DNA of 56,075 bases, filler included, from Dugesia japonica (lineage: Eukaryota): NCBI GenBank assembly GCA_001938525.1. It is 5 parts of 5 records of this genome, joined end to end, with 100 filler letters (N's around TTAATTAATTAA, not from the genome) between each part and the next. Parts side by side here need not be neighbours in the genome. Positions count along the whole stretch, not along the records: positions 1 to 8,635 come from MQRL01499872.1; 4 more parts are not named here. The stretch is one strand, 5' to 3'. Both the position numbers and the translations under genes were made by a program. Position 1 is the first letter of the stretch; every line of letters begins with the position of its first letter. Of the stretch, positions 2,676 through 4,815 are shown one piece after another. Below the pieces are notes generated by a model. It was not told where the DNA came from. It was given only the letters and a program-made list of their open reading frames with translations, and ran no database searches.

Positions 2676-4004
2676 ATGATGTCAATAGTTATGACGGGAA
2701 CAAACCCAAAAACGATTTTGGAAGAACAAAACAAAGATAAAAGAATACAGGAGATTAAAAAAATGATGATGCAAGAGAAGAATACTAAATATAAAATGTA
2801 TAAAAATTTGCTCATGTATAACAATTTAGGGAAAAATTTGATGGTTGTACCAGATTCTTTAAAACAATTATTATTATTACAATACCATGATGGAGCGCTC
2901 GGAGGACACTTATCCAGTAGAAAAACAACGCTAAGATTGTTACAGAAATACTATTGGGACAATATCAAGGAAGATGTAAAAAAATGATGTCAAGCATGTG
3001 GTATCTGTGCTACAAGAAAAAATACAGGAACAAAAACTAAAGTTCCCCTACAACCAACCTAGTTCACCAATGGAAACATGTGCAATGGATTTTTGTGTAA
3101 ATTACCAACAACTATAAAAGGCAACAAACACATATTGGTATTCAATGACTATTTCACAAAGTGGGCAGAAGCATTTCCTATAAAAGATGAGACAGCTGAA
3201 ACAGTAGCAAGGCTATTATTCGAAAAAATTATATATAAATATGGAGCGCCGAGAAAATTGCTATCAGATAGAGGAAAGAGTTTCCTCAATGAGGTTATAC
3301 AACGAGTGACCAGTATGTTTGATATCAAAAAAATAAATACAACGGCTTATCATCCACAAACAGATGGTTTAGTTGAAAGATTTAACAGCACATTATGTAA
3401 TAGATTGGCAGTCTTCGTAAATAAACATCAAAATAATTGGGATCTATTTATTAAGCCAACGTTGTTTATACATAATACAACTGAGAACGAAGCTATAGGG
3501 TATTCACCATTTTATCTTATGTATCTCAGACAAAATCATATGCCTATAGATATAACATTTGAACCAGTTGTATCACAATACATGGATAATCCAGATTACG
3601 TTTTAAAGATGCAAGAAAGATTACAAGAAGTATATAAACAAGCCAATCTAAAAGTAAGATTCAAACAAGAGCAATATAAAGACTATTATGATAAAAAGAC
3701 CAAGGAACATAATTTTAAAGTAGGAGATAAAGTGAGAATAAAGACCCCAGTTACACAAAAAGGGTTAACAAATAAATTGGCAAGGCCTTATAAAGGTCCA
3801 TACGAAGTAGTAAAAACAACCCCTACAAATTTACACGTAATAAAGAATAAAAAAGATGATCCCATGATTGTAGCAGTTAACCGATGCAAGCTAGCAGAGA
3901 CAGAAATTGAACCAAAAAAACCGCATAAATATAATCTTAGATCAGGATTACAAAACACATTACCAATCCTTGCAATAACCTTATTAACAATAATAGGTAA
4001 GTGA
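2676..4004 (+). pseudogene. pol: Integrase of element A (HHCC, DDE core, GPY/F)
   Basis: YHDGALGGH...CQACGIC (TGA at 2985), FNDYFTKW, LSDRGKSF, YHPQTDGLVERFN, PYKGPYEV; ends YNLRS followed by hydrophobic LPILAITLLTIIG. Confidence 0.95.
3995..4002 (+). promoter_or_regulatory. Candidate splice donor AG|GTAAGT at the end of pol
   Basis: Perfect U2-type donor consensus; cut after 3996. Confidence 0.45.
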
Positions 4005-4815
4005 AGCTCAATTAGTCAAAAAACATGGTTCTGCTTAAATAACAAGAATAATTTATTCAAATAAAATTATACTCAGGGTACTAGAAGATAAAAGGAATAT
4101 AATACATATTTCTGCGCATATATGGGGTAACCCAAAGGTATACAAGTGGAGGGGTCAAGTAAAAATAGGAGGATTAGAAGCTAATGCGGAATATAAACTC
4201 TGGATATGGGTGACAAGAGATAAATACGGGATAGTAGAACATCATATATTTACTACACTACCTAAAAAACGAGAACAAGAGAAGTTGTCAATAAAAAAAC
4301 AATATACAAACATTCTGACAAAACAAAGAAAGCTGAGTACAATCAAACCACAACCAGAAACAACCATCCCTCCAGTAAAGTCACAAATAAATATACAATG
4401 TAGAACTATCCTGATAAAGCAAAAAACGTTGAGTATAACCAGACCACAAACAAAAACAACTGTTCATTATAATACACTAACACATAGTACGTCCACAATG
4501 ACCATGATAGCAAATGCGAAGGCAAACAAAAAGTCAACAAGAGATAGACGAATTTCAAATAATAGCATAAAATTAGATCATCAGCCACTGCGACATAAAA
4601 TTCTACAGATGTGGATTACTACAACAATAAAACCATTTGACATAAAAATATTACATCACCCTTTTACAATATTGGGAATGATTGCAATNNNNNNNNNNCT
4701 CGCTTTCATAATTACATTAATCCAAATGCATAAGCGATATAGGTGGAAGAGGCAGCGTTATCGGCGTCGCAATGTCCCGCAAATTCCGAATTATGTCCAA
4801 TGGACAGTGGTCTGA
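3997..4815 (+). pseudogene. Accessory ORF1: putative type I membrane protein (FN3-like domain, Thr/basic stalk with a 32-aa duplication, RDRR, TM helix, basic tail)
   Basis: Frame 1 is open from 3997 except for TAA at 4036. VKIGGLEANAEYKLWIWV...FTTLP resembles the C-terminal strands of FN3. Hydrophobic segment at about 4663-4725 is followed by KRYRWKRQRYRRR. Confidence 0.6.

Follow-up and report, generated by a model that had tools for sequence, protein, structure and literature searches.

A predicted FN3-type membrane module behind the integrase of a decayed Ty3/gypsy element of Dugesia japonica and of its relatives

The described systems closest to the locus analysed here are the planarian Burro/GYPSM1 giant elements, in which env lies in frame between gag and pol within a giant polyprotein, is related to mononegavirus fusion glycoproteins and is accompanied by extra domains, among them ankyrin repeats, and by accessory ORFs (PMC6431247). 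The gag-env-pol order with an ENV of the HSV/gB type is also reported for errantiviruses of nematodes, bryozoans and flatworms, and six Schmidtea mediterranea ENV rows in the supplement of that work resemble by eye the glycoprotein of P0126, one of the relatives of our element (PMC13524379). Our element echoes these systems in gene order and in the type of its likely env, and ankyrin repeats recur in P0113, its sister in our integrase tree. It differs by what stands behind the integrase. An FN3/TM/PDZ-ligand module at this place is not listed in the main text on Burro, where the word 'fibronectin' has 0 occurrences (PMC6431247), and the main text on the errantiviruses contains neither fibronectin, immunoglobulin, PDZ nor exonuclease, a chromodomain being the sole post-integrase domain discussed (PMC13524379). 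The bdelloid Vesta/Juno elements do encode, downstream of pol, small TM proteins (ORF3) and DEDD exonucleases, but in separate ORFs, and fibronectin is unmentioned in the main text (PMC5408684). The accessible text of a further study added nothing on domains (PMC11410931). The searchable literature yielded no account of an FN3-TM-PDZ-ligand module that follows the integrase, the original Burro paper and its figures lying outside this search. Grohme et al. 2018 are said to mark, perhaps, a fibronectin-like domain in their domain figures, and an earlier annotation of such a domain in these elements is possible. The element type is known; its second surface protein and the conserved tail of that protein appear undescribed.

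The window, by which we mean the whole analysed stretch of 56,075 nt from D. japonica, holds at positions 1-8600 the 3′ portion of a Ty3/gypsy LTR element, decayed and lying in AT-rich sequence, with all of its features described below on the plus strand. It covers only the 3′ 8.6 kb of this element, the 5′ half precedes the window start, and gag and the 5′ LTR are absent. Protease, RT and RNase H (556-2650, with frame breaks and N gaps) are followed by an integrase with zinc finger, core and C-terminal domain, ending in YNLRS (2709-3944); this PR-RT-RH-IN order matches the criterion for Ty3/gypsy elements (Metaviridae). Burro elements proper are of giant size (over 30 kb) with MATH/BIR/BCL2 cargo. 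The 3′ end would be marked by a probable polypurine tract and 3′ LTR start (8531-8545), placed from the sequence itself without a 5′ LTR in the window for comparison.

Accessory ORFs fill the space between the post-integrase module and the 3′ end. ORF 4836-6491 is a lead for a DEDD/RNase T exonuclease-like protein: its best ESM Atlas matches are to PF00929 at 0.83, below the 0.9 mark, and it is homologous to an ORF of the locus L001 (L001:3723-5876, E 4e-06). It may be catalytically dead, given a first DEDD motif that is YIDMK in the window and seems degenerate in L001. The next stretch (6492-7145) is either an acidic ORF of its own or the preceding ORF continuing past its stop, and has no family. 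A RING-finger (C3HC4) ORF follows (7348-8514, PF00097 over the cut-off), interrupted by a stop at 8236-8238 beyond which the frame stays open; it is homologous to the RING ORF of L001 (L001:2055-3392, E 1e-16), conservation extends outside the finger, and it is a candidate element-borne E3 ligase. The two L001 ORFs stand in swapped order relative to the window. Elsewhere in the window we noted decayed Ty3/gypsy fragments of another family (12800-16100, 28000-29000, 37700-38400, 41800-43100, 53400-55900), Tc1/mariner-like transposase fragments recognized by eye (11200-11700, 18178-18675, 38820-39242) and degenerate satellites of about 21, 31 and 32 bp (34700-37300 and 44100-44830).

The initial annotation described, behind pol, a non-canonical gene with signal peptide, FN3-like domain, repeated stalk, RDRR site and TM helix, and most of this anatomy was recovered. 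The pol frame ends in YNLRSGLQNTLPILAITLLTIIGK with a stop at 4004, and VSEAQLVK lies in frame 1 from 3997, as had been read. The hydrophobic stretch right after the integrase (3955-4008), with a mean hydropathy of 1.83 over 15 residues, agrees with the proposed signal peptide, and a predicted internal signal peptide occupies the equal position in 10/10 relatives with a mapped first repeat. ORF 4039-4815, open over 258 codons, then encodes a single predicted seven-stranded FN3-type beta-sandwich (4039-4266) and a Ser/Thr/Lys-rich stalk with one N-glycosylation sequon (4267-4660). The tandem duplication of 96 bp claimed for this stalk is there (4291-4386 and 4387-4482, 63/96 bases identical); the best 96-nt repeat of the stalk reached 68/96, attained by 0/300 codon shuffles (maximum 53). 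Also present are the RDRR (4540-4551), one TM-length hydrophobic segment in the ORF (ORF residues 207-231), predicted as the TM helix (4661-4728), and a basic cytoplasmic tail (4729-4815) with 9 K/R and zero D/E in 30 residues. Besides a stop treated below, three features had escaped attention: 10 N at 4689-4698, which mask four TM residues, the T-V-V terminus and a likely env remnant upstream. We consider the anatomy of signal-peptide-like stretch, FN3-like domain, duplicated stalk, TM helix and basic tail to be real.

This anatomy is not that of a canonical Env. As had been remarked, neither a Cys-rich ectodomain nor a fusion peptide is visible: the ectodomain, a 76-residue beta-sandwich and a stalk, holds 1 Cys, and we found in it no class I/III fusion ectodomain, no fusion peptide or loops, no conserved cysteines and zero Pfam env matches. 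Signal peptide, beta-sandwich, stalk and TM, all predicted, are in line with a non-fusogenic type I surface protein, as the initial annotation had supposed. Sequence searches with the ORF itself were nearly silent, since ORF 4039-4686 had 0 homologues among 90 word-index candidates and 0 in a full HMMER search, and the PDB sequence search with the ORF returned just 2 chance matches.

Support for the FN3-like segment comes from predicted structure. For residues 1-80 of the window ORF, the best ESM Atlas hits were all FN3 clusters, the top one at 0.93 with 161 shared features, on a scale where chance matches get to 0.9 in 4-10 of 100. The AlphaFold2 model, computed with eight relatives' repeats as alignment, has seven strands at pLDDT 70.5, and its top structural matches are human fibronectin FN3 domains (VIA Z 7.8, rmsd 2.7, 74 aligned). 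A beta-sandwich was thus modelled, as anticipated, while the Foldseek E-value was only 0.06, and in VIA FN3 was tied with Ig domains, so that FN3 and other Ig-like folds are not separated by the window's own model. The L-x(4,5)-Y motif that precedes strand F in FN3 domains is aligned in the window domain. At the Pfam PF00041 gathering score the window domain had no match, and 3/8 relatives' repeats were found at E 0.025 or weaker. The two repeats of L001 gave a firmer model (pLDDT 82.8) that matches tandem FN3 domains of tenascin at Foldseek E 2e-09, with VIA Z 9.7 and rmsd 2.6 A for one domain.

A profile of 5 locus-derived repeats found only weak matches in the PDB, the best a non-FN3 protein at E 0.054 with FN3 proteins common beneath, and the profile with the window row included had titin (E 5e-06) and sevenless (E 7e-05) among its matches. 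When this row was left out, profiles of the relatives' repeats failed to recognize the window domain, 51 of about 494 scored shuffles scoring as high. A viral fold library returned generic FN3 proteins only. We infer the common descent of the window domain with these repeats from position, architecture and predicted fold. Taken together, the window domain is predicted to be an FN3-type beta-sandwich.

An integrase-based search for longer proteins gave 11 close matches at 47-52%. To these, metagenome and genome scans, the former over 3/64 parts, added the clade loci L001, L091 and L092 among 158 kept, and a scan of viral contigs yielded 10 loci, all distant. In an integrase tree of 45 rows, from which P0126 was omitted as a near copy of P0004, the window lies within a clade of 15 (support 100/99). 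At least part of the module is carried by 12/15 clade integrases: the frame runs on into a signal peptide and between one and three FN3 domains, and in complete cases also into stalk and TM. The full order integrase-signal-repeats-stalk-TM stands in frame in P0002, P0004, P0006, P0007, P0008, P0009, P0011 and L001; the module is partial in P0005/L092, L091 and P0113, P0005 having signal and repeats and then a stop, and it was not seen in the sequence examined of the clade members P0001, P0003 and P0010. Relatives' ectodomains span about 200-370 residues (FN3) behind their signal peptide. Outside the top 11, 0/84 scored integrase proteins have a hydrophobic segment after the integrase (25/120, without the anchor motif, were left unscored). 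Among 126 proteins, the repeat profile matches clade members only. Pairwise phmmer comparisons with 13 relatives' tails gave nothing significant. The predicted post-integrase module is thus, as far as sequence comparison goes, a trait of the clade.

Some members show further rearrangements. In P0009, residues 1-240 hold another signal-FN3-TM module, which precedes the protease within that polyprotein and is homologous to the post-integrase repeats. Extra aspartic-protease-like domains occur after the integrase in P0001, P0002 and P0010 and before RT in P0007 and P0126, which suggests repeated module duplication in the clade. In P0113, the ankyrin repeats are inserted between integrase and signal peptide. 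L091 and L092, members of this eukaryotic clade, come from bacterial genome bins, most likely through contamination.

Class I PDZ ligands are C-terminal S/T-x-V/L/I motifs. A terminal [ST]-x-[VL] was found in 6/7 complete relatives versus 3/111 control integrase proteins (Fisher p 2e-07, the rows not being independent). The window ORF, which ends in T-V-V-stop, and L001, which ends in T-L-V, were both added after this test; with them, a predicted class I PDZ-binding motif stands at 8/9 complete C-termini (the window and 7/8 complete relatives), a count that overstates independence as two pairs among these rows are close kin. The exception is P0126/P0004, which lacks it. Apart from this motif the tails, of 17-77 residues, are unalignable. 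A similar arrangement is known from HTLV-1, whose Env, a viral type I membrane protein, binds hDlg via a C-terminal PDZ motif of class I type at T-cell contacts; there the motif sits on the fusogen, whereas in the present clade it ends a separate FN3 protein fused to pol (PMC3185783). The furin-type site fared differently, since R-x-K/R-R occurs in 0/8 relatives' ectodomains and the window alone has RDRR. Shedding by furin, as first proposed, was therefore rejected.

How this protein relates to env is best seen in P0126 (3,735 aa, from the cluster of P0004), which reads Gag, fusion glycoprotein, protease, RT, RNase H, integrase and FN3-TM module. Its glycoprotein, between gag and protease, is of Monjiviricetes type (PF24664, E 1e-91), and env and module in one protein were seen only in P0126/P0004. 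In the window, tblastn with the P0126 env region points at 2-228 to what is likely left of a class III fusion glycoprotein, in two pieces: 97-228 is the best match in the 56-kb window (E 0.001, 30% over 44 aa), and 2-73 a weaker match (E 0.74) collinear with it. Both pieces fall within the PF24664 match of P0126; a Pfam search with the window pieces themselves gave zero matches. Between the two fragments lies a direct repeat of about 17 bp (49-95), the expected pattern for a microhomology-mediated deletion. The remaining env would lie outside the window or have been deleted.

Because a class III env stands upstream in P0126, a likely remnant is found in the window and the gag-env-pol order is published, we conclude that the ORF accompanies env and does not replace it: it does so in one relative, and likely in the window. 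The element is likely Burro-like, a Ty3/gypsy member of the GAG-ENV-POL type that has a surface protein in addition to env, the env remnant in the window being a weak match. The initial annotation had placed the ORF in the env slot. It does lie after pol, but this is not the place of env in this clade, whose fusogen, as seen in P0126, is encoded between gag and pol, and the term 'env position' is misleading because the likely fusion glycoprotein remnant lies upstream of pol.

The window copy cannot make the protein. It is broken twice, by a frame break near 3996, which had been recognized, and by an in-frame stop (4036-4038) that separates VSEAQLVK from the FN3 domain and had been overlooked when pol and ORF were joined. 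Of the listed sequencing runs, 17 contain part of the stretch, none of them on record as RNA, which does not bear on expression. In their contigs the stop appears private to the window copy, with 95%, 92% and 100% of contig depth in X1, X5 and X8 departing from the window there. Contigs bridging 3991-3997 have length differences whose net effect is to put pol and ORF in one frame, in 3/3 bridging contigs of X9, about 85% of depth in X5 and about 60% in X1, X2 being less clear; these figures are sums over paired rows, and the contigs concerned are short assemblies rather than complete copies. One frame for pol and ORF, which the initial annotation had proposed to look for in other copies, is thus found in most of the bridging sister-copy contigs and in relatives. 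Splicing at this junction was also considered and rejected, as the window copy does have a donor-like sequence, but no joint is listed there and the sister copies differ at this place.

Depth along the ORF is uneven. In X2, at 80% likeness, it amounts to 30,000-54,000 over TM and tail versus 470-1,900 over the stalk, and the TM-tail contig depth in DNA is 10-50 times that of the ectodomain, and X1 and X5 behave likewise. Such a profile would be expected if the anchor is conserved and the head diversifies, though contig depth does not give copy number. Three X2 contigs link the integrase end to the tail or farther (3952-4897) with unknown letters between, and some subfamilies may have a different ectodomain or none. 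Raw RNA reads on the ORF are near nil in the 6-25% of each run that was read (X19, depth 0 over 3969-4538; X18, 6 reads; X22, 1 read), and X9, which is only guessed to be RNA, covers the ORF.

Of the functions first suggested, adhesin, decoy or shed protein, adhesin or decoy remains the best range, and shedding by furin falls away. With confidence a little above even, we regard the window ORF as a decayed copy of the clade's in-frame post-integrase membrane module, likely an attachment or adhesion protein partnering a separate fusogen that is likely encoded upstream of pol. The polyprotein would thread the ER membrane twice, as signal-env-TM, cytosolic pol and signal-FN3-stalk-TM, and cleavage by signal peptidase would release the FN3 protein from the integrase. 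Through its tail this protein would attach to host PDZ scaffolds of the Dlg/Scribble/MAGI type and so come to lie at cell-cell contacts, where the stalk-borne FN3 head would hold a neighbouring cell or virion receptor and the gB-type fusogen would deliver capsids. Attachment proteins separate from the fusogen operate in two-component viral entry, as G with F in paramyxoviruses and pneumoviruses and gD with gB in herpesviruses, a likeness by analogy only, without sequence or fold relation. More tentatively, and as a proposal that may well fail, the clade could represent two-component entry in invertebrate retroviruses, in which a class III fusogen before pol and an FN3 attachment protein after integrase are cut from one membrane-threaded polyprotein and the PDZ tail sets up a virological synapse at the junctions between host cells.

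Alternatively, the protein could be a host-manipulating decoy, a mimic of a host FN3 receptor that soaks up ligand or blocks superinfection on the producing cell while its tail sequesters PDZ polarity scaffolds, with no direct role in entry. The RING and exonuclease-like ORFs of the element are further host-manipulation cargo, BIR and BCL2-like domains are described in Burro elements (PMC6431247), relatives' tails contain Tyr- and Pro-rich motifs, and the head diverges fast, all of which would suit a decoy. We nevertheless hold it to be rather unlikely, as the fold matches single out no specific host receptor, a repeat number of one to three suits a spacer-borne adhesin over a defined receptor mimic, and the stoichiometric fusion to pol suits a role in the particle or its assembly. 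An assembly tether, in which internal signal and TM-PDZ tail hold Pol at the membrane or steer budding to one cell face with FN3 as a folded spacer, would explain why the TM-tail is the conserved part and why the ectodomain is hardly alignable over the clade; it is improbable in view of the folded FN3 domain, which every member with the module retains and several have in duplicate, and of signal cleavage, which would separate the tail from Pol.

That the module protein is itself the fusogen, either as a replacement envelope occupying the place of env or in the manner of sORF2, the FAST-type protein of MDG1 elements, seems very improbable to us. It does lie after pol, and it has a single TM and a basic tail like sORF2/FAST proteins, which are likewise non-env membrane proteins of Ty3/gypsy elements used at cell contacts; sORF2 is short, however, replaces env and has an amphipathic, often myristoylated ectodomain (PMC11952523). 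None of these traits (shortness, amphipathic or myristoylated ectodomain, an element without env) is found with the module, which has a signal peptide in place of myristoylation and a folded FN3 head on a long stalk, shows no fusion peptide or amphipathic ectodomain motif, lacks a conserved furin site and co-exists with env, a true class III fusogen lying upstream in the clade. Equally hard to credit is a neutral fragment of a captured host gene, with no role for the element: the broken window copy and the scant RNA would fit it, but architecture and terminal motif are retained across integrases just about 50% identical, and no close host homologue was found in the word-index and HMMER searches.

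In enveloped reverse-transcribing elements a single Env is thought to serve binding as well as fusion. That a second surface protein is conserved here, combining a predicted adhesion fold with a tail predicted to target junctions, suggests that the two tasks can be divided. The module is a candidate for how retroelements bearing a class III fusogen find their target cells, for example stem or germ cells.
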